Shown in pieces: positions 2,794 to 59,410 of a DNA stretch of 64,000 nt (position 1 is its first letter; each line of letters opens with the position of its first letter). A program made the position numbers and the translations under genes. Under the pieces are notes generated by a model, which saw only the letters and a list, made by a program, of their open reading frames with translations, was not told the DNA's origin and made no database searches. The stretch comes from Dehalococcoidia bacterium (GTDB taxonomy: Bacteria; Chloroflexota; Dehalococcoidia; DSTF01; JACRBR01). The stretch spans positions 457 to 64,456 of the forward strand of contig JBBRPY010000005.1 in assembly GCA_038227375.1 (NCBI GenBank). Direction: 5' to 3'.

Positions 2794-3570
2794 CTAATCC
2801 CGCCGGGTGTTCATCTCGTGGATGATCCGTAGTCCTGTGAGTGTGAGGTTCTGATCGACGGCGTCGAAGATGTTCGTCTCAGCGGCGAGACGCTCGGCCC
2901 AGCCACCGGTGGCGATGACGCGCGCGCTGCCGCCGAGCTCCTTCTTGAAGCGCGTGACCATCCCTTCGATTAGGCCAACATAGCCGAACAGGGTGCCCGA
3001 CTGGATCGCCGCCACCGTATTCTTGCCGATCGCGCTCTTCGGGCGTTCGAGCTCGACGCGATAGAGCTTGGCGGCCCGCTCGAAGAGCGCCTCGGAAGCG
3101 ATGCCGATGCCGGGCGCGAGCGCGCCACCGAGGTAGTCGCCGTCGGCCGTGACCGCATCGAAGACCGTGGCGGTGCCGAAGTCGACGATGATCAGCGGCG
3201 GCGGGCCGTAGAGCTGGAGCGCCGCCACGACATCGACGACCCGGTCGGCGCCCACCTCGCGCGGGTTGTCGTACAGAATGCGGACGCCGGTGCGGGTGCC
3301 TGTGCCGACGACCAGCGGCTCGATGTGGAAGTAGCGGCGGCAGAGCTGCTCGAACATCGGCGCGAGGTCGGGCACGACGCTCGCCATCACCCCTTCCGTG
3401 ATCGCATCGACGGCGATCTCCTCGGTGCGGAGGAGACCCAGCACCATGACCGCGTATTCGTCAGAGAGGCGAAGGTTATCGGTAGCGAGCCGCCAGGTCG
3501 CGCGGATCTTGTCGCCGTCGAAGATGCCGATGGTGACGTTGGTGTTGCCGATGTCGAACGCGATGAGCAC
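2794..3570 (-). CDS. coaX: type III pantothenate kinase
   Basis: VLIAFDIGNTNVTIGIFDG...DFGTATVFDAV...ATGG motifs. GTG start at 3568-3570 chosen from the homology N-terminus, so the longer ORF in the track is an over-extension. Stop abuts the coaBC start, consistent with an operon. Confidence 0.8.
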   Translation of the reverse strand: MLIAFDIGNTNVTIGIFDGDKIRATWRLATDNLRLSDEYAVMVLGLLRTEEIAVDAITEGVMASVVPDLAPMFEQLCRRYFHIEPLVVGTGTRTGVRILYDNPREVGADRVVDVVAALQLYGPPPLIIVDFGTATVFDAVTADGDYLGGALAPGIGIASEALFERAAKLYRVELERPKSAIGKNTVAAIQSGTLFGYVGLIEGMVTRFKKELGGSARVIATGGWAERLAAETNIFDAVDQNLTLTGLRIIHEMNTRRD

Positions 3571-3723
3571 CCGGCCTCCGTTTCGCGGCAAGTATACAGC
3601 CGCCGCCGCGCTGCCCTCAGCCGCCGTCAATCTCCATCCGCAGCCCCAACGCGGCCGAGCGGCGCGACGAACTGGCCAAGTGGGCTGTGGCCGGATAGCC
3701 GCGGTCACGGTACCCTCTTGAGC

Positions 3724-4626
3724 ATGAGGACCGCCGCGACGCGTCCGGCGCGCATTTCGAGTGCAGACGGCGCCGGCCTGCTCGTTTGCCACATGGGCGC
3801 GCTCTCGGGCGCGCACGCGCGAAACTCGCTCGACGCGATCCGCGAATGCTTCGAAGCGAACGTCGGCCGGATCGAGCTGGACATGCATTCGCTCGACGGG
3901 CCCGATTACATCGTGTTCCACGACCGGCGCCTGGAAGCGGCGACGACCGGCAGCGGCTCGGTCGGCCGGGCGACGCCGGACGAGGTGCGCGCGGCCCGAT
4001 CGCTGGCGAATCCTGATGCGCGGCCGCCGCTGCTCAGCGAAATCGTAGAACTCGCGCGGCGGTGCGACACCGAGCTCCAGCTCGACTGGAAGGACTGGCG
4101 GCCGATCTCACCGCCGCGCCTTCGCGCGCTGATCGACGTCGTCGCGCCGATCAAACATCGGGTCGTCGTCTCGACCGGACAGGACTGGAACCTGCGGCTG
4201 CTACATGCGGCCGATCCGGAGATCCCCTTCGGCTTCGACCCCGGCCACTACCTCGACCACGCGACCGAGGGTGACACGCTCTTCCTGCCGCGGACGATGG
4301 GCGCCTACGGCTATCGCGACGACCATCCGCTGGCCTTCGGCCGGACGGAGGCGCCCGCGGACTACCTCGCCGCTCGGCTGGAAGCGCTGACGGCGCAAGC
4401 GCCCGGCGCCCGCGAATACTTCCTGAGCTACCGCATGGTGCTCCAGATGCAGGACGACGGCTTCGATGTCGTCGGGTGGCTGCACAGCCGGCATATCGCC
4501 GCTAACGTCTGGACGCTCGACCACGAGGGCGATGACTCGGTGCACCACATGCGGCGGCTACTCGAGGCGGGGATTGATCGCATCACGACAAACACTGCTC
4601 GCGGATGGGAGACGGCGTTCGCGTAG
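3724..4626 (+). CDS. glycerophosphodiester phosphodiesterase family protein
   Basis: GDPD-like LLVCHMGALSGAHARNSLDAIRECFEANVGRIELDMHSLDGPDYIVFHD... The ORF track N-terminal extension is R-rich junk. Start taken at ATG 3724. Confidence 0.6.
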   Translation: MRTAATRPARISSADGAGLLVCHMGALSGAHARNSLDAIRECFEANVGRIELDMHSLDGPDYIVFHDRRLEAATTGSGSVGRATPDEVRAARSLANPDARPPLLSEIVELARRCDTELQLDWKDWRPISPPRLRALIDVVAPIKHRVVVSTGQDWNLRLLHAADPEIPFGFDPGHYLDHATEGDTLFLPRTMGAYGYRDDHPLAFGRTEAPADYLAARLEALTAQAPGAREYFLSYRMVLQMQDDGFDVVGWLHSRHIAANVWTLDHEGDDSVHHMRRLLEAGIDRITTNTARGWETAFA

Positions 4627-4642
4627 TGCCGGCGAGGGGACA

Positions 4643-5326
4643 ATGTCTGCCCAGAAGCGTGCTTCGCTCGTCCTGCTGGTTCTGTTCTATGCGGCAGTCT
4701 TGATATTGGCTCAGGGCTGCACCGCGAAAGACAAGAAGAGTGCTCCCACAGTTGCTGCGGCACCCACCGCGACGTTCCTTCCCGAAGAAACGCCGGTAGC
4801 GCAAACCAACGCTGCCACGATCCTTCCCGAAACATCGCCGAGCGGGCAAACCAAAACAAGCGGTTGCGACTTCTCCAAACCTGTCGCACTGCGTGCCGGG
4901 ACAACCTACGATTTCTTGGGCAGCGATGTGTTCGATACCACGGTCTGCGGCTACATCTCTGTCCCGGACGAACTGGGCGGCGAAGGCGGCAATGTACCGG
5001 TCACTATTCCGTATCTGGTTATCCTGGAATATGGTCAAATCCAGTTCCAACGTTCGATCGCCTCCTGGATCGCGCGGGGAAACAACATTAATCGCAAGGA
5101 AGGGGATCATTATCTCTTCAACTGCGGTTGCGTCAAAGACGGGCACATCGTGGGCAGAGAGTACCCGGATGGAGTTCCTTACATCGATCCAGTCACCGAG
5201 AAAGCTCTCCTTGGTTCGTCCATAGAGCAACCGGTGACACTGATGCTCTCCTTCGGTATGCATAATGGTTCCGGATGTGTGTGCTGCAACACGGCCCATA
5301 AAATCCGCTTGGCCCAAATTGCGTAA
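4643..5326 (+). CDS. hypothetical lipoprotein encoded by a low-GC gene (Cys-rich C-terminus)
   Basis: MSAQKRASLVLLVLFYAAVLILAQGC has a lipobox (LAQGC). The gene is ~52% GC against ~68% in its neighbours, with many A/T-ending codons. GAGGGGA RBS. C-terminal CGC...CVCC cysteine cluster. Confidence 0.55.
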   Translation: MSAQKRASLVLLVLFYAAVLILAQGCTAKDKKSAPTVAAAPTATFLPEETPVAQTNAATILPETSPSGQTKTSGCDFSKPVALRAGTTYDFLGSDVFDTTVCGYISVPDELGGEGGNVPVTIPYLVILEYGQIQFQRSIASWIARGNNINRKEGDHYLFNCGCVKDGHIVGREYPDGVPYIDPVTEKALLGSSIEQPVTLMLSFGMHNGSGCVCCNTAHKIRLAQIA

Positions 5327-5355
5327 GCTCCTCGAGAAGTCTTTGTCCCCGGACA

Positions 5356-5562
5356 CTACCCGAGCGCGGCGGTGAGGGCCGTGCGGAGATCACCCTCCGC
5401 GAGCGGGGCGTGCGCGATGACGCGATCGCCCGCGGCGATCACCGGCACGATGTCGTTGTACTTCTCACGCAGTTCAGGCTCACCGTCGATATCGACTTCG
5501 CGGAGGGCGAAATGCAACTCGGCGCCCAGCAGGCGCAATTCGGATGCCACCTCGTCGCACAA
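5356..5562 (-). CDS. glutaredoxin-like protein (NrdH/YruB type)
   Basis: The first canonical start is TTG at 5560-5562. Homology clearly continues upstream (LSREVILYTRENCGLCDEV...) and includes the CGLC redox motif. The frame is open to 5604 with no ATG/GTG/TTG, so the true start may be a CTG at 5602-5604 that overlaps the lgt stop. Confidence 0.55.
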   Translation of the reverse strand: MCDEVASELRLLGAELHFALREVDIDGEPELREKYNDIVPVIAAGDRVIAHAPLAEGDLRTALTAALG

Positions 5563-5600
5563 CCCGCAGTTCTCGCGCGTATAGAGGATGACCTCGCGGC

Positions 5601-6545
5601 TCAGCGGTAACGCGCGGAGCCGGTGGGCTCGGGGACGTTGACGCGCGGGCTTGAGCCTGGAAGCGCGGCCGCAGGTTCTGACTGAGGCGACCGCAGGATG
5701 CTCCAGACGAGGGCGACGGCGCCGATCGCGAAGGTGCCGACAGAGACGACCTGCGGGAACGTCATCCAGTTCTTGATGATGTGATCAGGGCAGCCAACGA
5801 GGTCCGGGCAGAACGGGCCGCTGTCGATGCGGAGGTAGCTGACGCCGAAGCGCATCGCCGAATAGAGGACGACGCCACTGAAGAAGGTGATGCCCGGGCG
5901 GTGCCGCCAAAACTTGATCCACAGCAGCCCCACGATCCCGATGATCAGCAGATCGCCGATCATCTCGTACATCGTGGCCGGGTGTCGGCCGATGAACTGC
6001 CCGCTGGACGTCGCCGAAAACGGAAAGCCGGGCGAACTCGGGTCGCTGTACTTGACCGCCCAGGGCAGGCTTGAGACCGTCGAAACGTGCTCGCCGTTGA
6101 TCAGGTCGCCGATGCGCCCGATCGCCATGCCGAGCAGGGCGCCGAATCCCGCCGCATCGAGGCCGCGGGTGACGGGCAGTTTGCGAATCACGCCGTAGAT
6201 GCAGGCGGCGATGACACCGCCGATGATCGCGCCGTAAACGGTGATCCCGCCCTCGTTGATCTTGAGCACGTCGCCCCACTGGCCCTCGAAGCGCACGCGG
6301 TTCTCGAGCACGAACATCGCGCGGGCGCCGATGATGCCGGCCGGCACAGCGATCAGCGCGATGCTATAGCCGTCATCCTCGGTGATGCCCTGCTTCCGGC
6401 CAAACCAGATGGCGAGATAGACGCCGGCGGCGATGCCGATGGCGGTAAAGACGCCGTGCCAGGAGAGGGTGAACGGTCCGAACTTGGCGATGTTTGGGTC
6501 CCACGACACGGTGATCGTGAGCAGATGCAGCATGACGCCTGGCAC
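5601..6545 (-). CDS. lgt: prolipoprotein diacylglyceryl transferase
   Basis: 314 aa. A polytopic membrane protein with Lgt signature regions (GPFTLSWHGVFTAIGIAAGVY...YGAIIGGVIA...GRIGDLINGE). Confidence 0.9.
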   Translation of the reverse strand: MPGVMLHLLTITVSWDPNIAKFGPFTLSWHGVFTAIGIAAGVYLAIWFGRKQGITEDDGYSIALIAVPAGIIGARAMFVLENRVRFEGQWGDVLKINEGGITVYGAIIGGVIAACIYGVIRKLPVTRGLDAAGFGALLGMAIGRIGDLINGEHVSTVSSLPWAVKYSDPSSPGFPFSATSSGQFIGRHPATMYEMIGDLLIIGIVGLLWIKFWRHRPGITFFSGVVLYSAMRFGVSYLRIDSGPFCPDLVGCPDHIIKNWMTFPQVVSVGTFAIGAVALVWSILRSPQSEPAAALPGSSPRVNVPEPTGSARYR

Positions 6546-16476: not shown

Positions 16477-17700
16477 TTACACTTCGTTTTTGTTGAGGGT
16501 GGCGAGGAATTCGGCGTTGCTGCCGGTGCGGCTGAGGCGTTCGAGCAGCCGCTCGGTCGCCTCCGACGGGTTGGATGAGTTCGACGAGAGCATGGACATC
16601 ATCCGCCGCATCAGCCAGACCTGCCGCAGCGTCGCCTCGTCCATCAGCAGCTCTTCTCGCCGCGTGCTGCTGGCGGCGATGTCAAGCGCCGGGAAGACGC
16701 GGCGCTCGGCGAGCCGGCGGTCGAGCCGGAGCTCCATATTGCCAGTGCCCTTGAACTCTTCGAAGACCACCTCGTCCTGCCGGCTCCCGGTATCGACGAG
16801 GCAGGTGGCGATCACCGTCAGGCTGCCGCCCTCTTCGCAGTTGCGCGCGGCGCCGAAGAAGCGCTTCGGCGGGTAGACCGCGACCGGGTCCAGGCCACCG
16901 GTCAGCGTGCGGCCGCTGGGTGGCATCGCGAGGTTGTACGCGCGCGTCAGGCGGGTGATGCTGTCGAGCAGGATGACGACGTCCTTGCCGCCTTCCACCA
17001 ACCGCTTCGCGCGCTCGAGCGCCATCTCTGCAACGCGGGTGTGGTCCTCGACCGGCTCATCGAAGGTCGAGGCGACGACCTCGCCCTTCACCGACCGCTT
17101 CATGTCGGTCACTTCTTCCGGCCGCTCGCCGATCAGCGCCACGACCAGGTGGATATCGGGCCAGTTGGCGGCGATGCCCGCAGCGATCGCTTTGAGCAGG
17201 AATGTCTTGCCGGCTTTTGGCGGTGAGACGATCAATCCGCGCTGGCCGCGCCCGATCGGTGAGATGAGATTGATCAGGCGCCCGGAGAGGTCCGCCGACG
17301 GCGTCTCGAGATCGATCATCTCGTTCGGGAAGATGGCGGTGAAGTCTTCGAAGTGCGGCCGGTTCTTCGCGACCTCCGGGTCGAGCCCGTTGACGTTGTC
17401 GACGCGGAGCAGCCCGTAGTATTTCTCGCTGTCCTTCGGCGCGCGGACCTGTCCGGTCACGTAATCGCCCGTGCGCAAACCGAACCGGCGGATCTGCGAT
17501 TGGCTGACGTAGACGTCGCTCGATCCCGGCAGCAGGCTTTCGCCGCGGAGGAATCCGTAGCCGTCGTCGACGATCTCCAGAATGCCGCCGGTCGTCAGCG
17601 CGTTGTCGCGCTCCGCCTGCGTCATCGGCTGTTCGGCGGCATCCTCCTGCGGCGCCGGACGTGGGCCGCCCGCGGATCGTCGTCGTTCTCGTACTGCCAT
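16477..17700 (-). CDS. rho: transcription termination factor Rho
   Basis: 407 aa. Cold-shock-like RNA-binding domain, Walker A GKTFLLK, RecA-like ATPase and a conserved C-terminus. Confidence 0.95.
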   Translation of the reverse strand: MAVRERRRSAGGPRPAPQEDAAEQPMTQAERDNALTTGGILEIVDDGYGFLRGESLLPGSSDVYVSQSQIRRFGLRTGDYVTGQVRAPKDSEKYYGLLRVDNVNGLDPEVAKNRPHFEDFTAIFPNEMIDLETPSADLSGRLINLISPIGRGQRGLIVSPPKAGKTFLLKAIAAGIAANWPDIHLVVALIGERPEEVTDMKRSVKGEVVASTFDEPVEDHTRVAEMALERAKRLVEGGKDVVILLDSITRLTRAYNLAMPPSGRTLTGGLDPVAVYPPKRFFGAARNCEEGGSLTVIATCLVDTGSRQDEVVFEEFKGTGNMELRLDRRLAERRVFPALDIAASSTRREELLMDEATLRQVWLMRRMMSMLSSNSSNPSEATERLLERLSRTGSNAEFLATLNKNEV

Positions 17701-17884
17701 GTTGTCCTCGATTTGGGGTGATCAGGCGGTGGTGCCGCCGTACGATGCTCTCCCTGTGGGATCGGCGCTCCGCCGGTATGGCACGTGCCGCGGACTGCGC
17801 CCGCGGGCCGAACGTATGCGTGGACCAAAATGGGGTTTCGCTCGGCGCCGGGAGAAGAAGCGCCGGTTCTGCGGTGGGCCTCCT

Positions 17885-17914
17885 CTTAGTACCGCATGGA
17901 CAGGATATCTGTCA
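17885..17914 (-). promoter_or_regulatory. candidate sigma70 promoter for rho (TTGACA-N18-TACTAA on the minus strand)
   Basis: Reverse complement of 17881-17920 reads CTTGACAGATATCCTGTCCATGCGGTACTAAGAGG, giving a ~175-nt leader to the rho ATG. Confidence 0.35.
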
Positions 17915-18191
17915 AGCACAAGCGAAGTCGCCGCGCCCGGTGATGACATCCGGAGGCGGGGGAGGTTACCGGACTCGTGGACGCCACCGACACGAACAGC
18001 CTGCAGCAGCACCTCACGACCGGTACCGGTCTCACCGGTTCCGCCAACCTCTGAAGGTGGGTGGACCGCGCACGCGGGCCGCCATCGAACGCGGCCCCAA
18101 ACAGCGCCCCTGGGAACAGCTATCTCAAGGGTGGTGACGAAGTGTCGGTTTACGACGTGACCAAGGATGGATTCATCACTTCCGCCGACAC

Positions 18192-18210
18192 GAACTTCGT
18201 TACGAAGTTC
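18192..18210. repeat. perfect 19-bp palindrome GAACTTCGT-T-ACGAAGTTC in an AT-rich patch
   Basis: 9-bp arms with a 1-nt spacer. It sits in a ~180-bp lower-GC noncoding stretch between the rho promoter and the upstream gene. Confidence 0.5.
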
Positions 18211-18519
18211 TTGACCTTGAAGTGCCCGATCCAGACCTCGCAGGCGACGTGCGAGCGTCGAACCCGCAAGCGGAACCGTAGGAAATTCTTCGCCTTCGTG
18301 GGAAGTGGCGTCCGGCCGGAATGCCGGACGCTTCCCCCGGCTTACTCCACGCCGAACGCATCCAACACGACGATCTCGATGATGCGAATGCTACCGGCGA
18401 CCACAAGAAGAGCTTCGACGTCGCAGGCACCCGCCCAGCATCCGTTCGCGCCGTCTGCGGAGTCGCGACTTCGAGTCTCGGTTCCTCCGTGGAAGGGCTC
18501 CCGTCGGCGCGCCGGAGGG

Positions 18520-19413
18520 TCAGCGCAGGGCGATGATCGCCGCCGCCAGCAGGATCGCCTCGGCGCCGACTGCTGCGAGCAGCAGGACGTAGCCGACCAT
18601 GCGCTCCCACGAGTGCGCGGCGAAGCCGAGCGCGAGGTTCACCAGCAGCAGCCCGATGCCGGTCATCGGCAGCTTCAGCAGCTCATCCTTCGACGCGATG
18701 CGGGTGACGCCATTCAGTTGCGGGAACGAGAGCGCGATCGTTGGTGACAGGCCCGGGTACTGCTGGTAGATGTAGGCAAACATCGCGAAGAAGGTGGCGA
18801 ACGCCGCGAGCGCGAGCAGTTGGGCGGCGCGGTCTTCCCAGAACGGCTGCGCCGCAAGATAGAGCCGGTCGGGCACTTGCGGAACCGAGACCAGCGATCC
18901 CAGCCGCTGCGTCGACTGCACCGCCTCGGCGAACGCCACCTCGTCCTCGAGGCTGATCGCGTACGACTGGTCGGGTGTCACAACGTAGAGCAACTCCGCT
19001 GGCGAGCGATGCGTCGAGTAAAACAGCGTGCGTCCGATGCCACCTTCGATCTCGGCATGGCCGATGTGGTGGCCCAACCAACTGACGCCGGCGACGTGCG
19101 GGTTTCCGAGCTCGCGACCGGGCACCAGCCGCTCGATCTGCGACATCGGCACCATCTGGCGGATGTCGCCCCAGGTGATCGTCAGTGCGTTGCGGTCGAG
19201 GGTGTAGCGCAGCGTGCCGAGGCTGTACGTCCAGTACGAGAACAGCAGCCCCATGAAGAAGAAGACCGACGCCACGACGTACAGCGCGATGACGCCGAGC
19301 GCCACGTCGGCCGTCACGCCGCGCACGACGAGCGCAAGGGCGACGATGAAGCACCACGCCGACAGGCCGCCGCCGACGAGCGTGCCGATCGCCCTTGGTG
19401 GCCGAAACTCCAT
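18520..19413 (-). CDS. hypothetical membrane protein (bacterial PH-like domain flanked by TM helices)
   Basis: 297 aa. The ATG overlaps the ilvE stop (ATGA), indicating translational coupling. TM helices at both ends. Confidence 0.6.
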   Translation of the reverse strand: MEFRPPRAIGTLVGGGLSAWCFIVALALVVRGVTADVALGVIALYVVASVFFFMGLLFSYWTYSLGTLRYTLDRNALTITWGDIRQMVPMSQIERLVPGRELGNPHVAGVSWLGHHIGHAEIEGGIGRTLFYSTHRSPAELLYVVTPDQSYAISLEDEVAFAEAVQSTQRLGSLVSVPQVPDRLYLAAQPFWEDRAAQLLALAAFATFFAMFAYIYQQYPGLSPTIALSFPQLNGVTRIASKDELLKLPMTGIGLLLVNLALGFAAHSWERMVGYVLLLAAVGAEAILLAAAIIALR

Positions 19414-20366
19414 CAGGTCCGTGCCGCTGCGGGAGCGGGTTCGGCGGCCGGCTTCACGGCGCGCACCCAGTGCGCGTACTTCGAGTTGCGGCCCCGCAGC
19501 ACGTCAAAGAACAGCTCCTGCAGCTTCTTCGTGATCGGCCCGATCGTCCCGTCGCCGACCGCGCGGCGGTCGACCTCCGTCACCGGCGAGAGGTGCGCTG
19601 CCGTGCCGGTAAGGAAGCACTCATCGGCGATGTACAGCTCCGAGCGGTCCATCGTCCGCTCGATCACCTCAAGGCCCAGCTCTTCCTTCGCGAGCGTGAA
19701 CACCGACTCGAGCGTGATGCCCTCGAGCACGTTATCGCTCCGTGCGGGCGTGATCAGCTTGCCGTGGCGCACGATCACCAGGTTCTCGCCAGAGCCCTCG
19801 GACACGTGGCCGTCGTCGTTGAGCATGATCGCTTCGTCGTAGCCGTTCTCGATCGCTTCGGTTTTCGCGAGCGCCGAATTCACGTACAACCCGTTCACCT
19901 TCGCCCGCGCCGGAATCGCCGTATCCGGCACACGCCGCCAGGTCGATGTCTGGCAGCGAATGCCGGCGTCAAGGTCGAGGTAGTTGCCGAACGGGATGGC
20001 GAAGAGCATGAAGTCGGAATCGACGCCGTCGAGCCGCGGTCCGATCACCTCCCCGCTCTTGTAGGCGATCGGACGGATGTAGGTGTCCTCGCGATACCCG
20101 CAGCGCTCGACCACGTCCGCGCAGATATCGCACAGCTCCTCGGCCGATTGCGGCAGGGCGATGCGCATGATCCGCGCCGAGTCCTTCAGCCGCTCGAAGT
20201 GCTTGTGCGGACGGAAGATCAGCGTGGCGCCGAGTTCGTCGCTCCAGTTGCCGCGAATGCCCTCGAACACGCCCGTCCCGTACATGAAGGCGTGGGTCAT
20301 TACCCCTACCTTCGCTTCCTCCAGCGGGACGATGCGCTTCTGGAGGTAGCAGTACGAGCCTGGCAT
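19413..20366 (-). CDS. ilvE: branched-chain amino acid aminotransferase
   Basis: MPGSYCYLQKRIVPLEEAKVGVMTHAFMYGTGVFEGIRG... is the class IV aminotransferase fold. Start taken at ATG 20364-20366. Confidence 0.9.
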   Translation of the reverse strand: MPGSYCYLQKRIVPLEEAKVGVMTHAFMYGTGVFEGIRGNWSDELGATLIFRPHKHFERLKDSARIMRIALPQSAEELCDICADVVERCGYREDTYIRPIAYKSGEVIGPRLDGVDSDFMLFAIPFGNYLDLDAGIRCQTSTWRRVPDTAIPARAKVNGLYVNSALAKTEAIENGYDEAIMLNDDGHVSEGSGENLVIVRHGKLITPARSDNVLEGITLESVFTLAKEELGLEVIERTMDRSELYIADECFLTGTAAHLSPVTEVDRRAVGDGTIGPITKKLQELFFDVLRGRNSKYAHWVRAVKPAAEPAPAAART

Positions 20367-20561
20367 GTGGGCGTCCTTTCTGTGTCGGGGAATGTGCCCA
20401 TGATAGGCGACAAGGCAGAATTGCAGCAAACGCCGGGCACGTCGGGTGCGAAAACAGCAACTGCGTTTGGGCGTCGACTCCCGCGGTGCCTATGTGCGCA
20501 GCCCTGCCTGCAATACGGTGGGCTCCTTGCGTAGTTTCCGTGCCTGTGACACGATCCGCCG

Positions 20562-21164
20562 GTGGCGAGCTACATCGAACGTGCGACCCTTCATCCCCGG
20601 GGCTGGAACGAGCAGGTCATTCTGCCCTACGGCCTCCGCGGCTCGGAGATCAAGGCGGCGATCGATGACATCTACGACTTCGTCCACAACATCAACCGAT
20701 TTCTCGTCGAGCGGGGATGGGATCGGTTGGAAGAGACGCTGTCCGCCGCCACGTTCAGCGGCGTCATGAGCGAGCTCGTCGTTGAAGGTGTGTCCAAACG
20801 CAGCGCGACGATCATCAAGAACCAGTATCACAACGGCCGGCCGGATCTCATCCCACGAGGGATGTACCCGGAAGAGCGTTGCCATCGCGGCGGGGATGGG
20901 ATCGAGGTGAAGGCCTCGCGCTGGTCAAATGGCTGGCAAGGTCACGACCGGATCATGTGCGCGGTTCTGACGGAAGATGATTGGAGCTTTTCCGGGCGTG
21001 GCGCGACGAGCAGGCGGACACCCACCGCATCGATCAAACGCGCCGGCGTGGCGAACCTCGAAGCGAACGCGATTTATCTGGATCCGACATACGTTGCGCG
21101 CCCGACGCCGAGGAAGAAGACTCAGGTAGTGATAACTGAGACAGAGCCGGAATCGCCGACGTAG
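20562..21164 (+). CDS. Type II restriction endonuclease candidate (PD-(D/E)XK)
   Basis: 200 aa with GRPDLIP...GIEVKAS (a PD...EVK catalytic motif). Low-GC gene. Convergent with the MTase and overlapping it by 131 bp. Confidence 0.6.
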   Translation: MASYIERATLHPRGWNEQVILPYGLRGSEIKAAIDDIYDFVHNINRFLVERGWDRLEETLSAATFSGVMSELVVEGVSKRSATIIKNQYHNGRPDLIPRGMYPEERCHRGGDGIEVKASRWSNGWQGHDRIMCAVLTEDDWSFSGRGATSRRTPTASIKRAGVANLEANAIYLDPTYVARPTPRKKTQVVITETEPESPT

Positions 21165-22026
21165 CGAGCGTCACGTAATCCGGGTCTACCTCAACCCCCA
21201 CTCCCCGATAACCAACCGCCTCACACGCCGCCAGCGTCGAGCCGCTGCCCGCGAATGGGTCCAGGACGGTGCCTTCGCCCAGCGGCAGGGCGGCGCGAAC
21301 GACTTGCCGTAAGAATGCCTGGGGCTTGAGGCTCGGGTGCGGCGCTAGCCGCCGTTCGTCCGGCCGCGTCGGCCGGCTGAGAATGACATCGAGAAACGGT
21401 CCGGATTCCAACCGGCGCAAACCGCCGGTGCGCCACTTCCGCAGATTTTCCGCAACCGTCCCTTCACATGGCTTACGGAAGATCACCCACGGTTCCCAGG
21501 CGGAGCGTGGCATCACCGTCACATCCGTGAACTCATCTTCCGCGTTCTTCGGCCGATCGCCGCCACGAAGCGTCTGCGTCAGCCGCACGATTTCGCCGCG
21601 CTTCTCGAACGCCGCGTCCACCATCGCCTGCGACACCACATACGACAACAGAGGGCTCGTAGCGATGAAGACGTGTGCACCGGGCACGAGCTTTGGCCTG
21701 AGGAGTTCGCCCCACTCCCTGAAGAAGTCATACATCGCCGCGATATCACGATTGTCCAACACGGTGAACCGAGGCACGGGCGCGCGCTTGTGACCGCCGA
21801 TCGACGATGGGATCCGCCACACGCCGCCGCGCCCTTGCCGAAGCTTTTTGATCTGCTCCGGCGTGTACTCAAGCATGCCGTACGGCGGATCAGTAACGAC
21901 CGCCTCGAACGAGGCCTCCGCCTGCTCGGCAAGCCAACGCATGCAGTCGCCCTCGTGCAGTTGTACGAGCCCAGAGGGCGACACGATGACGCGTGAGACG
22001 GATTGCTGCTCGCGCGGCTGATTCAA
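21034..22026 (-). CDS. DNA methyltransferase (beta-class N6-adenine/N4-cytosine; DPPY)
   Basis: Motif IV TDPPYG lies before motif I DPFAGSGSTLAA, the beta-class permutation. N-terminal LHEGDCMRWL. Confidence 0.85.
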   Translation of the reverse strand: MNQPREQQSVSRVIVSPSGLVQLHEGDCMRWLAEQAEASFEAVVTDPPYGMLEYTPEQIKKLRQGRGGVWRIPSSIGGHKRAPVPRFTVLDNRDIAAMYDFFREWGELLRPKLVPGAHVFIATSPLLSYVVSQAMVDAAFEKRGEIVRLTQTLRGGDRPKNAEDEFTDVTVMPRSAWEPWVIFRKPCEGTVAENLRKWRTGGLRRLESGPFLDVILSRPTRPDERRLAPHPSLKPQAFLRQVVRAALPLGEGTVLDPFAGSGSTLAACEAVGYRGVGVEVDPDYVTLATSAIPALSQLSLPESSSSASGAQRMSDPDKSRSLRGSPRRRV

Positions 22027-22239
22027 CGAGGACTCCGTTCAGAAGATATGTTCGATTGTAGCGTCCGGCATCCGCTCCGTCTATCTGATCGCCGGACACT
22101 GCGCCCACTCGGGCTTCGGCCGCATCATACCGGCCGAGGGCAAGCGCTACTGGTGGGCGCTGTGACGGCGCAACGCGGCCGATATCGTCGTGGGGCAGGA
22201 AGGGCTACGAACGCGCGCGGCCGGTGGGTCGGCCGCGGT

Positions 22240-22968
22240 TCAGCTTCGCCTAGCTACCGTGGGACTCGTGCATGCCAACTGAACAGGCGCGCGCGGCGGC
22301 GCGGCGGGCGTCCCGGCATCCGTGCGAGGGCGCGACCGCTTCGGCGGCATAAGGACACGAATGTCGGTCAATTCGCCCTTGGCGTTCCGGACCTCGATGC
22401 GATCGATGGAGGTAAAGCGCTTCGCGATGTCCCTCCAGATCACCATCGTGTTCCGATGACGGTACATCCCGACGATAATCACGCCGCCGTCTTCGAGCAT
22501 GTTAACGTAACGTTCGAGGACAGCGATCGGGTGTTTCGCATAGTAGAGCGTGTCGTTGAAGACGATGACGTGAAACTTCGCGTCTGTTTGCCATCGGGAA
22601 AAGTCGCCGACGCCAAACGAGACATTGGGCAGGGGCCGGGAATGCGCCCTCGCGATCGCCTCCGCTGAAACGTCTATCCCGAAGTAGTGATCAACCCCAG
22701 AAGTGTGAAGTTCCGCGATCAGGCGTCCATACCCGCAGCCCACGTCGAGGACTGTAGGCGCAGCTGAGTAATTCCTGATGTACGAGGCGATGACGGCGTA
22801 CCTCGGCATCTCGTCCATCGTCTCGAAATTGTCCCAGTGGCCCGTTCGGTATTGCGCGTTCCAAGTGCTTACGGACGTTGGCCGACCCTGCCCACGTGGG
22901 CCGAGGAAGACGTGATAGTAGGCAAGACCCACAACCTGATACAGCTGGCTAAGCAGATTGCGAATCAT
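22240..22968 (-). CDS. class I SAM-dependent methyltransferase
   Basis: VLDVGCGYGRLIAEL (motif I) and IIVGMY. Start taken at MIRNLLSQ (ATG 22966-22968). Confidence 0.7.
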   Translation of the reverse strand: MIRNLLSQLYQVVGLAYYHVFLGPRGQGRPTSVSTWNAQYRTGHWDNFETMDEMPRYAVIASYIRNYSAAPTVLDVGCGYGRLIAELHTSGVDHYFGIDVSAEAIARAHSRPLPNVSFGVGDFSRWQTDAKFHVIVFNDTLYYAKHPIAVLERYVNMLEDGGVIIVGMYRHRNTMVIWRDIAKRFTSIDRIEVRNAKGELTDIRVLMPPKRSRPRTDAGTPAAPPRAPVQLACTSPTVARRS

Positions 22969-24016
22969 CGAACCCTCTCGCGGATGATACGCCTCCACTG
23001 ATGCCGACGGATCCACCGTCGCTTCTCTCGCCGCGCAGGCGGAACACGTCGCCCAAACTGACACCCATGAACACCATCGCGATCAGTCCGAGCCCCATAT
23101 TGAACGCGGTCACGAAGATATGTGAACCGACGGCGTAGGCAAGCGCGCGATCTGCCGGAACGCCGTACAGCGCGAAAACGCCGAGCACCGCGAACTCCCA
23201 GGTGCCGATGTTTCCGAACGTAATCGGGAACGTCGTGATGACGGCCAGAGCCACCGTCACCGACACATAGGCAGAGAACGGCAAGCTCAGGTTAAACGCA
23301 TTCCCGTACGACCAATTGATGAGAAGGTCGATGCCCCAGCCGACGAGGCCGACCAACAGAAGAATGCCGAACAGCCGCGGCCGGCGGATCACCTCGAAGC
23401 CGTCGTGGAACCGCGGCCATTGCTGCTCGAGGCTGGTGTATACACGGTGCGGGAGCCGTCGCAGCAGTTGCCATTCGGGCAGGATATTGGGGAGCATCCG
23501 GCTCCCGATCACGGCGCCGAAAGAGGCGACGGCGCAGGCGGCGGCCAGCACCCACAACAACGGCTGATTTTGAGAGCTAACGCCTCCGCGGGCCACTGCA
23601 ACGCTGAGCAGCACAAAGCCCACGAACATCGTGGCGTTGACGACGGCCTCACTGCCACGCCCCGCGACGAGCCCGGCCCGCGGCAGCGAGTAGCGGTTCG
23701 CAACAATCTGAAGCTTGGCGACATCGCCGAGGTTCGCCGGAACGACGGCATTTACGAGCGTGCCGATGAGCAGCGCACCGAACAGTCCGATGATCGGCGC
23801 CCTGCCGACTTTCGTGAGCAGGGTCTGCCACTCCCACGCATTGATCGCACGCGCCGCGATGTACACGAGCAGCGCCACGCCCAACCACTCATACCGAACG
23901 CCGGAAAAGGCGCTCGCCAGGTTTGCCAGGTTCAGTTGCCAGGCGGCGAGCGAGACGAGCGTGACGGCGATCAAGATCTGCGTGAGCCACGTGTTGCGGA
24001 GCATTCGTCGAGTCAC
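22949..24016 (-). CDS. lysylphosphatidylglycerol synthase TM-region / flippase-like (UPF0104) membrane protein
   Basis: 355 aa with ~8 TM helices. Flippase-like domain only, with no synthase domain. Confidence 0.65.
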   Translation of the reverse strand: MTRRMLRNTWLTQILIAVTLVSLAAWQLNLANLASAFSGVRYEWLGVALLVYIAARAINAWEWQTLLTKVGRAPIIGLFGALLIGTLVNAVVPANLGDVAKLQIVANRYSLPRAGLVAGRGSEAVVNATMFVGFVLLSVAVARGGVSSQNQPLLWVLAAACAVASFGAVIGSRMLPNILPEWQLLRRLPHRVYTSLEQQWPRFHDGFEVIRRPRLFGILLLVGLVGWGIDLLINWSYGNAFNLSLPFSAYVSVTVALAVITTFPITFGNIGTWEFAVLGVFALYGVPADRALAYAVGSHIFVTAFNMGLGLIAMVFMGVSLGDVFRLRGERSDGGSVGISGGVSSARGFDDSQSA

Positions 24017-24283
24017 GTTGTTGCGGCGGCCCCGGGCCGACCGGAGGGGGTGCGTGCCGGCCTATCACCTGCGCGAGGCTGCCCATCCTCCATAGGAAAC
24101 TCCGGCTGGCGATCGAGAGGCGCTTCCTCGAACCCGCACACGCGCGCGAAAACATCGTACGGCCCGCCGCAGCTCTCGGCCGCGTTCAGCTCGCTTGCTA
24201 CTCTACCCTGCGGCGGTAGAGGCAGCAACGGGCAGGCACGGTAGCCGCATCGCATTTGCCGGAGGCATTCGCGGGCGCAACAC

Positions 24284-25165
24284 TTATTGCCCTGCGCCGG
24301 AGTGTTCCGGCGCCGCCGTCACGCCCGCCAGCTCCGGGTGGCCGGACCACACCCACGCCAGATCCGTCCGGCTGCAGCCCATCAGCACCCCGTGCAGCGT
24401 CGATGGGTGCAGGAAGATGCCCTCGGGGTTCGGGCTCTGCGGGTCGCGGCCGGCGTAGCGCATGCCGTGCGCGTCGAGCCGCCGGACGATCGGCGCGATC
24501 TCTTCCGCTTCGATGTAGCACATGTACAGCGTCTCGCCGCCGCGGCGCGTCTTGAAGCGGCCCATCGGCCGCGTCTCGTCTGTGATCTGCGACAGTTCGA
24601 TGCGGTCGAGGCGCTGCGGCGGATTGAACATGGTGAGGTGGCCGGCGTAGCCGTACTGCTTGCTGGCGATCGGCACGAAGTTCGACGCGTCCAGCCCGAA
24701 CCGGTCGGCGTAGAACGCCGCGGCGGCGCCGGCGTCGTCGATCAGGTTCGTCGCCTCGTACAGATAGCGCATCAGCCCCACCTGCGGGCGGGCGGCCTCG
24801 GGCGAGATGACCATCCGCAGCCCCGGTGTCTGGTTCGGCGCGATGAAGAGCTGCTGGCCCTCCTCGGAGAATTGGACGCCCTTCGACGACAGCCGCTTTG
24901 CGAGGCCGCTCAGGTCGTTGGTCGAGAATCCGGCGGCGAACAGGCCCTCGCCCCAGGCTGCGAGGTAGGCCTGCACGGGACCGTCGCCACTCGGTTCCAG
25001 CAGCTCGAACTCGCTCGTGCCGGCGTGCACGACGCGGCGCTTCGCCCCGAGCGCGCGCACCTCATCGTCGCGCACCAATTCTGCGTCAAAGATGTCGATG
25101 AAGGTCTGCGCCGCGGCCACGCGGTCCGTCACGGCGATCTGGATGCGGTCGACGTGCTCGAGCAT
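24284..25165 (-). CDS. VOC family protein (two glyoxalase/dioxygenase-like domains)
   Basis: Two repeated beta-alpha-beta(3) modules. A 7-bp-stem hairpin CTCTACC-N7-GGTAGAG lies ~70 nt downstream. Confidence 0.7.
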   Translation of the reverse strand: MLEHVDRIQIAVTDRVAAAQTFIDIFDAELVRDDEVRALGAKRRVVHAGTSEFELLEPSGDGPVQAYLAAWGEGLFAAGFSTNDLSGLAKRLSSKGVQFSEEGQQLFIAPNQTPGLRMVISPEAARPQVGLMRYLYEATNLIDDAGAAAAFYADRFGLDASNFVPIASKQYGYAGHLTMFNPPQRLDRIELSQITDETRPMGRFKTRRGGETLYMCYIEAEEIAPIVRRLDAHGMRYAGRDPQSPNPEGIFLHPSTLHGVLMGCSRTDLAWVWSGHPELAGVTAAPEHSGAGQ

Positions 25166-25309
25166 GGTCTCCTCCTCGCTGTCTGCCGTAGGAGCGCATG
25201 CTAGCCCGACAGGCGGCTCGCGTGCAATCGCGCCTTCGGCCCCGCATCGTGACAGATCGTGCGTACAATGTGTGCTGGAGCATCTGCCGATTAACCAAGG
25301 AGCCCCGCC

Positions 25310-26311
25310 ATGACCAGCCAGACACCCCCCGAACCCCCTTCCCGCATAGCGAGCGAGGGTGGCCTTGCCGCCGTTGTCCGCTGGCTGCTCACTATCTTCG
25401 CATTCATCCTGCTCATACCGCCCTGGGGGTTTCTGGTCTGGTTCTATTCAGTCAAGATCGTCTCGGAATACGAGCGCGGCGTCATCTTTCGCCTCGGCCG
25501 CCTCGTCGGAGCGCGCGGACCCGGCCTGTTCGTCATCATGCCCATCGTTGACCGGATGGTGAAGATGGACCTGCGCACCGTGACCATGGACGTGCCCAGC
25601 CAGGAGTGCATCACGCGCGACAACGTCACCGTGAAGGTGAACGCCGTGATCTACTTCCGCGTCGTCAACCCGGAAGATGCGGTGACGAAGGTGATTGACC
25701 ACTTCCGCGCGACGTCGCAGATCGCCCAGACGACGCTGCGCAGTGTGCTCGGGCAGTCGCTGCTCGATGACCTGCTCTCCGAGCGCGAGCAGATCAACAG
25801 CCGGCTCCAGACCATCATCGACGAGCAGACGGAGCCGTGGGGCGTGAAGGTCTCGACCGTCGAGGTGAAGGACGTCGAGCTACCGCAGACGATGCAGCGC
25901 GCGATGGCACGTCAGGCGGAAGCCGAGCGCGAGCGGCGCGCGAAGGTGATCAACGCCGACGGTGAGCTGCAGGCGTCGGAACGCCTCGCCGAGGCCGGCC
26001 GCATCATGTCCGAGAACCCGGCGACGTTGCAGCTCCGCTTTCTGCAAACGCTGTCGGAGGTGGCGACGGAGAAGAACAGCACGATCGTCTTCCCGGTGCC
26101 CGTGGACCTGATCAATCTCCTCACGACGAACCTGCGCGCGAACGGCGGCGGAGGCGGAGATGGCGCGCGGCCGCGCGTACGCGTGGGCGCGCCAGCGGAA
26201 GGCCGCGCAGGCGAAGCGCCAACTGGCGGCGATAGTGATCCGCTGGCGACGCCCGCGTCCGGCCCGCTGCCGCCCGTCGAGCCGCCGTCACGCGAGGGCA
26301 CCATCAGTTAG
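25310..26311 (+). CDS. SPFH/band-7 (stomatin-like) membrane protein
   Basis: N-terminal TM segment, then an SPFH core ([12 protein letters not shown]...[17 protein letters not shown]) and a coiled-coil tail. Confidence 0.85.
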
Positions 26312-36834: not shown

Positions 36835-38343
36835 TCATTCCTGTTGTCCCGCCCGCTGCGCCACCATCGCCGGCGTCACCGGCTGCAGATGGCCGTCCTC
36901 TAATTGCACAAGATACACGTTCCCGCTGAGGTTCTGCGAGAGCCGCTCGAAGTCCGCTGAGGAGAGCGCCCGCACGGAAACGCCCTTCCCATAGAGGGCG
37001 TGCCCCACCGACGTCAGCCATGTCGGCTGCCAGTACAAGTTCGACCAGAGCCCCTCATCGTCGACGACGTAGATCGTCGTGCCTTCGGGCGCGGCATCGT
37101 AGTTCGCCCGTAGATCGGTCGTGAGCAAGCGCCAGCGCTCCGTATCCTTCATGAACGGCTGGGTCTGATGGATCGTTTGCCACGAGTACAGGCCCGCGAC
37201 CGCGATCAGTGCCGCCGCTGCGAGCGCGTGCGCTCCCGGCTTCCAGAGGCGGACGGCGTGGTGGTGGACGAAGCCGGCGGCGACGGCGACGAGGATGGCG
37301 AAGAAGGGCAGCGACATGTAGGTGTAGCGCGTGGCGGTCCAGATCTTCCCCGGCGCGTAGGGCGCCACGCCGATCAGCATGCCGACCGCGGCGAACCGCG
37401 CGATGTGCGGCCCGCGGACGAAGAAGAAGATCGCGAACGCGACGACTACCGACCCCCACGCCCACTCCATCGCCCCCGGGTTCTTCTGGATGGCGCCGAC
37501 GGGGTAGGCGAGGCGCGCCATGTACACCCAGGTCTCTCTCGGGATGTGCCAGCCGACGCCGTAGAATCCGGCATCGACGCCCTGGCAGCCACAGCCACTG
37601 AGCCCCCCCACCAGCAGCGTCGCCGCGAGGCCGAACGGCAGCATCTTCATCACGAAGTCCAGCGGGTCGCGCCGCCGGACCAGCGACGCCGTCGCGTAGT
37701 AGACGAGGATCGCCGCGCCCAGCACGACGCCGCCTTCGTTCGCCAGGAAGCCCGCCACGAACAACAGGAACGACCCCCAGTACCAGGCGGCTCGTCGCTC
37801 GCCGCCCGCGACGTACTGGTGCAGCGCGAAGAGCGACGAGATCAGCAGGAATTCGCTGAAGACGTGCGGAAATGCGGTGATGTAGGTCACCGTGTGCACG
37901 GCCGATGCCGAGACCGCGAACACGGCGGCGGCGACGAGCGCGACGAAGAGGCGCTTCGTCATCGAAAGCACGAGCATGTACAGCACGGCGACGGTGGCCA
38001 CGTGCAGGGTGAGGTTCACAATGCGCCACGGCAGCGCGTTGAAGCCGAAGGTCTTGAATTCGGCCCAGTACACCAGCATCGTCAGCGGGCGCCAGTTGGG
38101 TGTGAGGTCCCGGAGCAGGAAGACGTCGCGCATGTACGCAGGAAACGCCCTCGACTGAATGTCGCCGAGCACGAGGAAGTCATCGCCGAAGAAGTAGTAC
38201 TTCATCGTCGGGATATGGATGCCGATGACGAGGGCAACGATGGCGAGGAAGGGGAGGTGCCGCGCAAGGCGGCGGAGGGCATCGGTCAGCGCGGCGCTGC
38301 GCGGCCGTTCGAACGCAGAGGCGTGCGTGGCTATGACGGCCAT
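36835..38343 (-). CDS. polytopic membrane protein, probable GT-C-like glycosyltransferase
   Basis: 502 aa with >10 TM helices, FFGDDFLVLGD in the first loop and a C-terminal soluble domain. First gene of the minus-strand operon. Confidence 0.55.
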   Translation of the reverse strand: MAVIATHASAFERPRSAALTDALRRLARHLPFLAIVALVIGIHIPTMKYYFFGDDFLVLGDIQSRAFPAYMRDVFLLRDLTPNWRPLTMLVYWAEFKTFGFNALPWRIVNLTLHVATVAVLYMLVLSMTKRLFVALVAAAVFAVSASAVHTVTYITAFPHVFSEFLLISSLFALHQYVAGGERRAAWYWGSFLLFVAGFLANEGGVVLGAAILVYYATASLVRRRDPLDFVMKMLPFGLAATLLVGGLSGCGCQGVDAGFYGVGWHIPRETWVYMARLAYPVGAIQKNPGAMEWAWGSVVVAFAIFFFVRGPHIARFAAVGMLIGVAPYAPGKIWTATRYTYMSLPFFAILVAVAAGFVHHHAVRLWKPGAHALAAAALIAVAGLYSWQTIHQTQPFMKDTERWRLLTTDLRANYDAAPEGTTIYVVDDEGLWSNLYWQPTWLTSVGHALYGKGVSVRALSSADFERLSQNLSGNVYLVQLEDGHLQPVTPAMVAQRAGQQE

Positions 38344-39075
38344 TCAGGTGTGCGCTCCGTCGGTGATGGGTCCGGTATCTGGGACAGCTTCTCGTTTTTG
38401 CGATCGTAGCATCGGCCGTGCAACCCGGCAATAGAGGGCGCGGTCTCCGCCGCGCGGCTTGTAAAGGGCCTTTGCCTGTTTAGGAGCTGCCCGGTTCTAG
38501 TTTGGTTCGCCACCTCAGGACCAAGAGCGAGGTCAGGACAAGCGCGACGATCGAGCCATAATGCGATCGTTGAAACGATGACTGATTCAATCAGTACAGC
38601 AACCTACAGAAACCAACGGCTACCGCGACCAGGCCCAGATCACCAGACTGTCAGATGGCGCGGAGACGCTAACCCGCCGAGGATTGCGTTCGGAGCTCGT
38701 CTAGGGCTTCGAGCCATCTTGATGCAGTCTCCCGACTAGTCCAAAGAAAAATCCCCCGACTCAACCGAAATGTGTAGACGGTGTTAGAGTGTTTCACTCG
38801 AATCCCAGCTGCCAGGCCAGCGCTGAAGCGCTCGACGCTCTCTATCTCTGCGATCGCCATTCTGACCATTGGAATCTTCCCGACACCGAGCGGCAGACCG
38901 AGGGGCCCATGTTGGGGTACCCACACAAGTGGTGAGCGGTCAACATGAGCCGACGCCAGCCGACCGCTAAGCGGCCAGACTCCCAGCAGGTTGCCACACT
39001 GTTCAGCATCACCGTCTCTTCGGCCTCACGATTCACCGCAAATACCTCAAGGGAAAGCCACGACGCTGGTCGACG

Positions 39076-40413
39076 CTACGGTGGCGCCTTGTGCTCTTGC
39101 AGCGGAGCGAGCGGGTCTTGCGGGCGGCCGAATCGGCGGCCGCCGCGGCGCGGTTCGCCTTCGACGAGGCCTAGAAATATCGCCAGCGGCCGCGCGACGA
39201 GGAGCGTCAGCGGCATGTACAGCACGCCGATCCAGAGCACCTGCCAGCCGTTTGCCGCGCCCTCCAGACGGATCGTATGCGTGATCTGGCGAAAGGGTTC
39301 GTTCACGATCAGCACGGTGTACGAAATGACGCCCACCCAGGCGAACATCCGTCCGGGCGTGCTGACCTCCAACTTCCCCGGGATCTTCATCACGAGCGGC
39401 AGGAAGATCAGGCACATGCCGAGCGCGTGCAGCGGCTCCTGGAAGGTGATCGGGCCGCCGCTATCGGGTTCGATCATGCTGCCGGCGATGAAGAGGAGCA
39501 GTCCGAGGACGACGATCGAGACGATGTCAAGCGGCGCGCGCGTGTACTCGATGAGGAGCTGCGGCTTCGTCACCATCAGGTAGCCGCCGACCATGCCAAG
39601 CCCGAACTCGAAGATGCGGAACGGCGCGAGCGTCTCCACCCAGCTCGTCGCGGGGATCAGACTGCCGTCGAAGGCGACGATGATGTTCAGCGAGACCATC
39701 GTGATGAGGAATGTGAGCGCCAGGAAGAACCAGGGGCCGATGCGCTTGAGCAGCGGCAGCAGGAGAGGGAAGAGGAGATAGTACTGGAGGATCAGCAGCA
39801 CGAACCAGAGCGACCCTTCCGGAGCGAACTGCCAGCCGTTCTTCCAGAACCGCGGGATCAGCGTGAGGCCGACGAGCAACTGATTCTTGTTGAGCACGAC
39901 GTCGCCGTTCTGGAGGAACCAACCGTAGTCATGCCCGCCATGGCGCTGCCACTGCACCAGCGCGAGCACGGCCGCGAAGGCGAGGGTGTAGAGGAAGCCG
40001 AACCAGTACGGGATCATCACCCGCCGCAGACGCCGGTAGAGGAAGCGAGGCGTCGAAGCGAATGTCGTCTGTCGCTGCATGGCGACAAGCGTCAGCGAGA
40101 GGCCGCTGAGGATCATGAAGAGGGGCACGCCGAGGTAGCCGACGCGCAGAAGGGCATCGAATGCGGCAGTTGCGGCATTCCACGCTTGCCCGCCGGTGAT
40201 CTCGTGCGGCACCGCCCGGAACTGGCTCGAGACCGGCTTCACGTCCAGGAACTTGATATCGGTCCAGAGGTGGTACAGCACGACCCAGAGGATCGCAAAG
40301 CCGCGGAGCATATCAACCGCGACGATGCGCCCGCTATCCGGCACGAGCCGGGCGTTCTCGAGCGCAGCGTCGTTGTCGCCGCTCGCTGCCATGTTTCTAC
40401 GTTTGGCCGCCAA
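39076..40413 (-). CDS. acyltransferase family 3 (OafA/YrhL-like) membrane protein
   Basis: VDMLRGFAILWVVLYH signature and ~10 TM helices. Confidence 0.8.
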   Translation of the reverse strand: MAAKRRNMAASGDNDAALENARLVPDSGRIVAVDMLRGFAILWVVLYHLWTDIKFLDVKPVSSQFRAVPHEITGGQAWNAATAAFDALLRVGYLGVPLFMILSGLSLTLVAMQRQTTFASTPRFLYRRLRRVMIPYWFGFLYTLAFAAVLALVQWQRHGGHDYGWFLQNGDVVLNKNQLLVGLTLIPRFWKNGWQFAPEGSLWFVLLILQYYLLFPLLLPLLKRIGPWFFLALTFLITMVSLNIIVAFDGSLIPATSWVETLAPFRIFEFGLGMVGGYLMVTKPQLLIEYTRAPLDIVSIVVLGLLLFIAGSMIEPDSGGPITFQEPLHALGMCLIFLPLVMKIPGKLEVSTPGRMFAWVGVISYTVLIVNEPFRQITHTIRLEGAANGWQVLWIGVLYMPLTLLVARPLAIFLGLVEGEPRRGGRRFGRPQDPLAPLQEHKAPP

Positions 40414-59107: not shown

Positions 59108-59410
59108 GCGGCACCTCCGGCCGGCGGAGGCGTCGTGTCGCACGAAACGCGGGAAACGGAAGGCGCGGCAACGACGCCGTCAGCAGGCACACAAACGAGA
59201 GTCCTGTGACAGGAGGTAAGACCGACTGAGGGATCAGCCGGGTGTCCGCGTTGAGCGGACCGTTAGCGTCGTAGGCGTATGATCGCGCACATCATTTCTT
59301 CGCACATGCTATCGACGGTCGTGAGCGCCGTCAATTCCGGGTGGGATGCGACGATGAGCGCCAATTCCCTAAACCTCGCCGCCCGCAACACTGCGGGCGC
59401 CGGCAGCAAG

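Follow-up and report, generated by a model that had tools for sequence, protein, structure and literature searches.

The closest described relatives of the element considered here, a two-gene Type II restriction-modification (R-M) cassette in a 64,000-nucleotide stretch of DNA from a Dehalococcoidia bacterium (contig JBBRPY010000005.1; hereafter, the window), are of several kinds. For the family of its restriction endonuclease (R), the nearest known proteins are the EcoRV/NaeI-like (β-lineage) Type IIP enzymes (the NaeI endonuclease domain, SwaI, ThaI, BglI, SfiI, EcoRV, NlaIV, HincII, and PvuII); the likeness, at 4–14% sequence identity to every solved enzyme of this group, is at the level of the fold, and the R protein of the window, unlike these enzymes, is without one core strand. 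Its methyltransferase (M) shares domain (PF01555), motif order, and size with beta-class DNA methyltransferases, in particular those of the structures 8urk and 9c3u (both entitled "Methyltransferase"), the TTHA0409-type protein (2zie), CcrM (6pbd), M.RsrI (1eg2), and M.MboIIA (1g60). Systems of the PvuII, Esp1396I, and AhdI types are controlled by a C protein, and their C-R layout with convergent M recurs in relatives of the cassette on Acidiphilium plasmid pACMV5 and at loci L033, L034, and L036 (L numbers denote the loci compared); the cassette of the window and those closest to it, unlike these systems, lack both a C gene and the space to accommodate one. EcoRI and Eco29kI are regulated by antisense RNAs and convergent promoters (PMC3141266; PMC3874152). 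Like the window cassette they have opposed transcription within an R-M unit, which could tune toxin and antitoxin levels; in EcoRI and Eco29kI the genes form a co-directional operon with reverse promoters inside it, and antisense RNAs of small size have been detected, whereas the gene layout of the window would yield two full-length mRNAs complementary at their 3′ ends. Finally, solitary methyltransferases can result from R-gene decay. These share with the window an intact M beside a damaged R (decayed kin are found at L010, L044, L074, L075, and L076), and the window differs in having one in-frame deletion and little else, consistent with an early or recent stage in a presumed loss of function.

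We interpret the locus, with a probability of about 0.7, as a mobile two-gene Type II R-M cassette with an intact M gene and a nuclease most likely inactive through deletion. A six-frame list of open reading frames (ORFs) returns the two genes tail-to-tail with 131 bp in common (Table 1), so that the convergence, coordinates, and overlap given in an initial annotation of this DNA are all real; the other ORFs around the cassette are long spurious frames, as expected at 63–66% G+C (GC). That annotation had taken the R gene as intact, but alignment with relatives reveals that the R protein is without 29 residues right after GWQGH. Intact relatives have ~216–240 residues (~229 for the intact gene), and the 200-residue ORF of the window is a deletion derivative. 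In a DNA alignment with the nearest cassette, the loss is a clean, in-frame gap of 87 bp with 1 nt of microhomology at the junction, and no repeat beyond that single nucleotide was found that would account for it. The lost segment, NVEDGWIMICQYYIDRQTEPIENRSPSRI (residues 129–157 of the intact homologue P0002), is present in all 61 aligned relatives. It contains three invariant residues (N129, E131, and Q139) and three near-invariant residues (W134, D143, and P154), and it represents half of WQGHNxExGW, which a locus-finding scan picked as the most conserved stretch of the family. In the predicted structure of P0002, it comprises strand 133–141, the next loop, and the beginning of strand 156–165. 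Among 70 columns conserved at 90% or more, the R protein of the window violates seven, six through the deletion and one through the substitution K194N; intact members violate 0–5. Because the deletion takes a central β-strand together with the invariant N, E, and Q that follow E-V-K, nuclease activity has most likely been lost, and we consider it likely that the methyltransferase is effectively solitary. The initial annotation had named an orphan methyltransferase as the outcome that would weaken its R-M call; that state is indeed the likelier one, although it would have arisen by deletion and not, as envisaged there, because the small protein belongs to a non-nuclease family.

Damaged copies occur elsewhere in the family. 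Matches to R and/or M in tblastn are split at L010, L044, L052, L074, and L076, in patterns of high-scoring segment pairs consistent with frameshifts, and the R matches at L070 and L075 are truncated at the N terminus, which suggests recurrent decay of the cassette. The R gene of the window also contains an exact 15-nt direct repeat, GCGGGGATGGGATCG, at 20711–20725 and 20890–20904 (copy starts 179 nt apart); this repeat is not at the deletion junction and could serve as the substrate of another deletion, one that would break the frame. A tblastn search found no second copy of the R family in the window.

The R family is, as judged from a predicted structure, a family of EcoRV/NaeI-like PD-(D/E)XK restriction endonucleases, biochemically uncharacterised. 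There are 569 homologues in a protein collection at E ≤ 0.001, those listed at full length being nearly all of 216–240 residues, and all database copies are labelled "hypothetical protein". Searches of Pfam, NCBIfam, and PDB sequences with the 200-residue protein and with intact relatives gave no match, and a search of a phage collection gave no homologue. The residues behind the initial PD-(D/E)XK assignment (PDL...EVK) are present as P94-D95-L96 and E115-V116-K117, and the candidate catalytic residues E57, D95, E115, and K117 are all kept. D95 and E115-V-K117 are invariant in the 61 aligned sequences, as is the acidic pair of the upstream motif RLEE. An AlphaFold2 (AF2) model of P0002, computed from the 61-sequence alignment (predicted local distance difference test, pLDDT, 89.2; predicted template-modelling score, pTM, 0.84), has a restriction-endonuclease fold and positions D95 and E115-V-K117 on strands 96–98 and 114–119. 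In a structure search with this model, the top matches were almost exclusively Type II restriction enzymes (NaeI, SwaI, ThaI, BglI, SfiI, and EcoRV). In addition, PADLOC model REase_II PDLC03564 gave weak matches to four diverse members of the family (E 2e-5 to 3e-4). An intact R protein of ~229 residues would be expected to cut the site recognised by M when that site is unmethylated.

The genomic setting of the family points in the same direction. We scanned one genome per species and obtained 72 loci in many phyla, two archaea among them; by tblastn, a DNA methyltransferase adjoins the R-family gene in all 72. The partner is a convergent beta-class methyltransferase in 65 loci, a divergent beta-class methyltransferase in three (L037, L043, and L045), and a divergent (head-to-head) C5 methyltransferase (PF00145) in four Solirubrobacterales loci (L018, L019, L022, and L057, with L004 and L022 counted as the one place that they are). 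The C5-partnered nucleases, at 45–51% identity, belong to the same R family, and the alternation between beta-class and C5 partners is best read as a partner swap inside one R family. A minority of the family has a C gene, so that C-dependent and C-less architectures are both present: in L078 (742–963; Acidiphilium pACMV5), L033 (2947–3186), L034 (992–1231), and L036 (3737–3985), an HTH_3 gene is located directly upstream of R and overlaps its start. Methyltransferase-paired relatives are carried by plasmids, specifically small mobilisable plasmids of Klebsiella, Citrobacter, and Raoultella, pACMV5, and a Mycobacterium avium plasmid. The swapped partners, the C genes of some members, the carriage on plasmids, and the patchy taxonomic spread are together the mark of a Type II R-M nuclease, and the R-M call stands. 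The initial assignment of the locus to Type II R-M is thus borne out, both by the restriction-enzyme fold and by the linkage to methyltransferases in genomes and on plasmids.

One plasmid member deserves separate mention. Klebsiella pneumoniae plasmid pCol4401-L117 (4938 bp; locus L077) carries, at 2602–4322, a distant member of the R family (33% identity, labelled "hypothetical protein") whose gene converges with a DNA methyltransferase gene with an overlap of 4 bp, and similar pairs are present on Citrobacter and Raoultella plasmids. Small ColE1-type clinical plasmids of this type appear to carry an unannotated R-M system.

The M protein is beta-class, as initially annotated, because DPPY (motif IV, residues 46–49) comes before the FxGxG of motif I, here DPFAGSGST (residues 256–264). 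It matches Pfam PF01555 (N6_N4_Mtase; 67 bits against a cut-off of 26.7, E 3e-18, residues 42–289) and PADLOC MTase_II PDLC03215 (E 5e-107), and a PDB sequence comparison gives significant similarity to the solved DNA methyltransferases 8urk, 2zie, CcrM, M.RsrI, and M.MboIIA. Its score is under every NCBIfam equivalog cut-off (for CcrM, 47 bits against 830), and no named enzyme is therefore its orthologue. In an alignment of 36 sequences, M keeps every one of the 87 invariant columns, and it presumably still methylates a short site. The source annotation gives M 302 residues from an ATG at 21942, which is M29 of the longer frame. Upstream of M29, the near-invariant residues D27 and C28, part of the conserved N-terminal pattern G..L...DC, are both kept in the window protein; close homologues are called at 330 residues; and the TTG at 22026 is preceded by GGAG. 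For these reasons, translation probably starts at the TTG, with the annotated start placed too far downstream and the annotated protein too short. The C terminus of M is a low-complexity tail of 28 residues encoded antisense to the R gene.

Table 1. Features of the R-M locus and its interval, with positions counted from the first nucleotide of the window
Feature	Position	Strand	Description
R gene remnant	20562..21164	+	200 aa, GTG start (ATG in relatives); PD-(D/E)XK homologue with internal in-frame deletion
M gene	21034..22026	-	Beta-class N6_N4 DNA methyltransferase, intact; 330 aa from the probable start TTG 22026
Dual-coding stretch	21034..21164	both	131 bp; last 43 codons of R and last 43 of M, plus both stops
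Deletion junction	20946..20947	+	87 bp (29 codons) gone; NVEDGWIMICQYYIDRQTEPIENRSPSRI in relatives (P0002 residues 129-157)
Two-gene R-M cassette	20525..22085		Span of DNA homology with cassettes in other genomes
Variable interval	20367..24283		Between conserved ilvE-bPH_5 block and conserved glyoxalase-Band_7 block
Candidate R promoter	20527..20555	+	TTGCGT, 17 nt, TG-extended CACGAT; ends 6 nt before start codon; read by eye
Promoter-like site, M gene	22055..22083	-	TAGACG, 17 nt, TACAAT; sole sigma-70-like match in 20300-22300

The limits of the cassette were set by alignment with L001, to which the DNA is ~80–89% identical within the cassette and unrelated beyond; homology stops ~35 bp upstream of the R start and ~60 bp upstream of the M start. 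The cassette contains no ORF for a C protein, and the limit upstream of R leaves no room for one, in agreement with the initial annotation, which had seen none. Neither direct nor inverted terminal repeats were found at its ends, no intrinsic terminator was found inside it, and an Rfam search of 19000–24000 gave no match. Each gene would have its own promoter, the two facing each other (Table 1). The candidate R promoter was not called by a sigma-70 consensus scan; the 22 nt upstream of the R start codon are 82–95% identical among the window, L001, and L006, with unrelated DNA farther upstream, and the position of the candidate suggests a leaderless R mRNA. At the M gene, TACAAT and the 20 nt that follow it are kept in L001.

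Several observations count against an inactive nuclease, and they would fit a fully functional R-M system in which the 200-residue protein is naturally shorter but active and incoming DNA continues to be restricted. The loss of 87 bp preserves the reading frame, the rest of the ORF is open, and all four candidate catalytic residues are kept. The rest of the R protein is 89% identical to its nearest intact homologue, and pairwise dN/dS (ratio of nonsynonymous to synonymous substitution rates) over the remaining codons is still low, at 0.05–0.115, which would mean either that the deletion is recent or that the shortened R keeps some selected role. The promoter-like region upstream of R is conserved. 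On the side of inactivation, private amino-acid changes are more frequent in R than in M for the window lineage (seven, including the change of the ATG start to GTG, against three) and the reverse for L001 and L006 together (three against 10; Fisher p = 0.04), but these counts are small. The AF2 model of the window R protein (pLDDT 83.6), in which the E-V-K strand and its neighbours are lost, is likewise supportive at most, AlphaFold being a poor judge of whether a deletion mutant folds. We nonetheless regard retained restriction as unlikely, while allowing it a real chance. Not one of the 61 aligned relatives dispenses with the deleted segment; the same protein no longer has K194, an invariant residue, and its gene no longer has an ATG start; in the predicted structure, the sheet gives way around the catalytic strand; and decayed copies of R or M are common in the family. 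That the deletion is instead a minority variant or a product of assembly, with an intact R in the dominant genome, seems to us improbable. The window is apparently from a metagenome-assembled genome (MAG), in which strain mixtures can collapse. An independent Logan assembly of SRR19962015 (L080) repeats the junction: its 8073-bp contig corresponds to window positions 17672–25744 with one mismatch and no gap. The two assemblies may share reads, so that their agreement rules out an assembler artefact while being compatible with a minority variant. At the same time, the 1-nt microhomology is no repeat that could mislead an assembler, and a collection of 5.8 billion sequences contains no near-100% intact version, the best intact match being 78% identical over the full query. 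It is very improbable, finally, that the family is not a restriction nuclease at all but accompanies methyltransferases in some other capacity, for instance as a regulator or a repair nuclease, with M as a primary orphan: the empty Pfam, NCBIfam, and PDB sequence searches and the uniform label "hypothetical protein" would suit that reading, but the structural matches, the partner swapping, the C proteins upstream of R, the small mobilisable plasmids, and the patchy taxonomy are those of R-M systems.

Within the preferred reading, of an R-M cassette with a probably inactive nuclease, the overlap of the two genes could still have a function of its own, and the initial annotation had suggested that antisense transcripts might balance the expression of R and M. 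Transcripts from the facing promoters must run into the opposite gene, because no terminator and no C gene lies between them, and the overlap might accordingly be viewed as a dedicated cis-antisense module that takes the role of a C protein in setting the R:M ratio, for which EcoRI and Eco29kI provide precedent (PMC3874152; PMC3141266) and to which the presence of a C gene in some relatives, though not here, would lend sense. The length of exactly 131 bp recurs in L001/L005 and L006, and L003 has 125 bp; the overlap is held across four lineages at dS (synonymous divergence) of 0.8–1.6 and is inherited from the clade of the cassette. In the family as a whole, an overlap is present in 53 of 69 convergent pairs, the median being only 16 bp; by automated estimate, the spacing varies between a gap of 255 bp and an overlap of 176 bp, and overlaps longer than 100 bp are almost confined to close high-GC Chloroflexota relatives. 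(Figures of 305 bp for both L003 and L007 are tblastn over-runs past the R stop, the called genes giving 125 bp, and a figure of 356 bp for L015 is probably the same stop read-through artefact.) Most C-less relatives overlap by 0–20 bp or have a gap, which shows that a long overlap is not needed where C is missing, and the idea that it stands in for a C protein found no support. Unusual conservation of the overlap DNA was rejected, the pairs of cassettes giving inconsistent results: identity in the overlap and in the single-coding parts is 89% and 80% for L001, and 78% and 82–84% for L006. Rfam, as noted, gives no match. R and M both end in low-complexity tails beyond their conserved domains, and stops are rare in high-GC DNA, so that tails run on; the overlap may simply be a tolerated consequence. 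On balance, a dedicated antisense module seems quite unlikely.

Comparison with related genomes reveals that the cassette occupies a variable spot. L001, L003, and L006 carry the same cassette, surrounded by genes other than those of the window. In the syntenic relatives L081, L082, and L083, there is a Lactamase_B gene and no R-M cassette at this site (L081 has extra small genes as well); the Lactamase_B gene sits where the window has the LPG_synthase_TM gene, a class-I S-adenosylmethionine (SAM) methyltransferase gene, and the R-M pair, which together make up the contents of the variable interval. Searches by tblastn from the syntenic relatives found glyoxalase, Band_7, ilvE, and bPH_5 in the window at 77–87% identity and no match to Lactamase_B. 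One syntenic genome holds its own copy of the cassette ~0.8 Mb away. The cassette is taken to be foreign to this site because it has other neighbourhoods elsewhere and because syntenic relatives are without it; it would have been inserted between housekeeping genes, in an interval of variable content on a high-GC chromosome of Chloroflexota-like type. In L082 (OY969567.1), an IS110-family transposase (DEDD_Tnp_IS110 and Transposase_20, called as two fragments) is present at 577–1364, ~4.6 kb from the syntenic ilvE, which fits a rearrangement-prone region.

Composition gives a different picture from synteny. The initial annotation had described a low-GC island at 20440–22240 and had considered it consistent with horizontal acquisition; foreign origin is supported by the related genomes but not by GC or tetranucleotides, and the boundaries were wrong, the varying region extending over ~20367–24283. 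GC is 62.9% for the cassette and 63.6% for the proposed island, against 66.4% for the whole window, which places them at the 7th–11th percentile of equal-sized segments. The k-mer check that had been proposed was run, and the tetranucleotide distance of the cassette is ordinary, 14% of segments being more atypical. Outlier status was rejected on these two tests, and the synteny comparison was used instead. The statement that the locus is richer in A+T than its flanks is half right: GC at third codon positions is 0.72–0.76 in the cassette and 0.87–0.92 in rho, ilvE, and the bPH gene, a difference that counts in favour of a mobile cassette, but the adjoining methyltransferase gene (22240–23064) is lower still in GC, at 60.0%, and local GC is lowest at 22001–23500.

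Some further features of the surroundings were recorded. The SAM methyltransferase and LPG_synthase_TM genes (22240–24016), in the same variable interval, have the lowest GC of the neighbourhood (57–61%). The class-I SAM methyltransferase (242–274 residues; Methyltransf_31/25/23, NodS-like) has a partial match to PADLOC "mad2" (E 1e-15), probably through the shared methyltransferase fold alone. The stretches of the window most atypical by GC or tetranucleotides, all more so than the R-M cassette, are 4251–6000, 38000–39500, and 58400–62000; their larger ORFs include those for GDPD, Lgt, KsgA (RrnaAD), and an FGGY kinase, and three ORFs in them (4466–5326, 59279–61144, and 61141–62082) have no Pfam match.

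As to specificity, the usual motif rule makes N6-adenine the likelier target of M, whose motif IV reads DPPY and not SPPY/F, and N4-cytosine the less likely one; the JGI label "adenine-specific" on M homologues is generic. The existence of C5-partnered relatives implies a cytosine in the recognition site. CAGCTG, the PvuII site, is the most depleted six-nucleotide palindrome in the window, with nine occurrences (285, 6917, 7043, 22761, 22942, 38806, 42602, 57500, and 57686) against 29.7 expected under a maximal-order Markov model and 19.1 from dinucleotide shuffles, and it is the second most depleted palindrome in the close-clade loci with intact cassettes. CAGCTG may be the recognition site, but this is a lead only: the comparison is uncontrolled, and several other palindromes are also depleted. 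A bolder combination, in which the 125–131-bp overlap of the clade is a working cis-antisense device replacing C-protein timing and the R family is a new blunt-cutting Type IIP lineage, possibly specific for CAGCTG, strikes us as distinctly unlikely.

The gains from this analysis are modest: known R-M biology is unchanged, and the cassette itself is ordinary. An annotation as Type II restriction endonuclease with the EcoRV/NaeI fold can now be given to more than 560 "hypothetical proteins", which have no Pfam model and range from Chloroflexota MAGs to small Klebsiella plasmids. The family provides natural contrasts for the study of R-M regulation, with and without C, with long and short overlaps, and with beta-class and C5 partners. 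The locus itself, with one in-frame deletion and little other decay, would be a clean illustration of how an R-M system begins to turn into a solitary methyltransferase.

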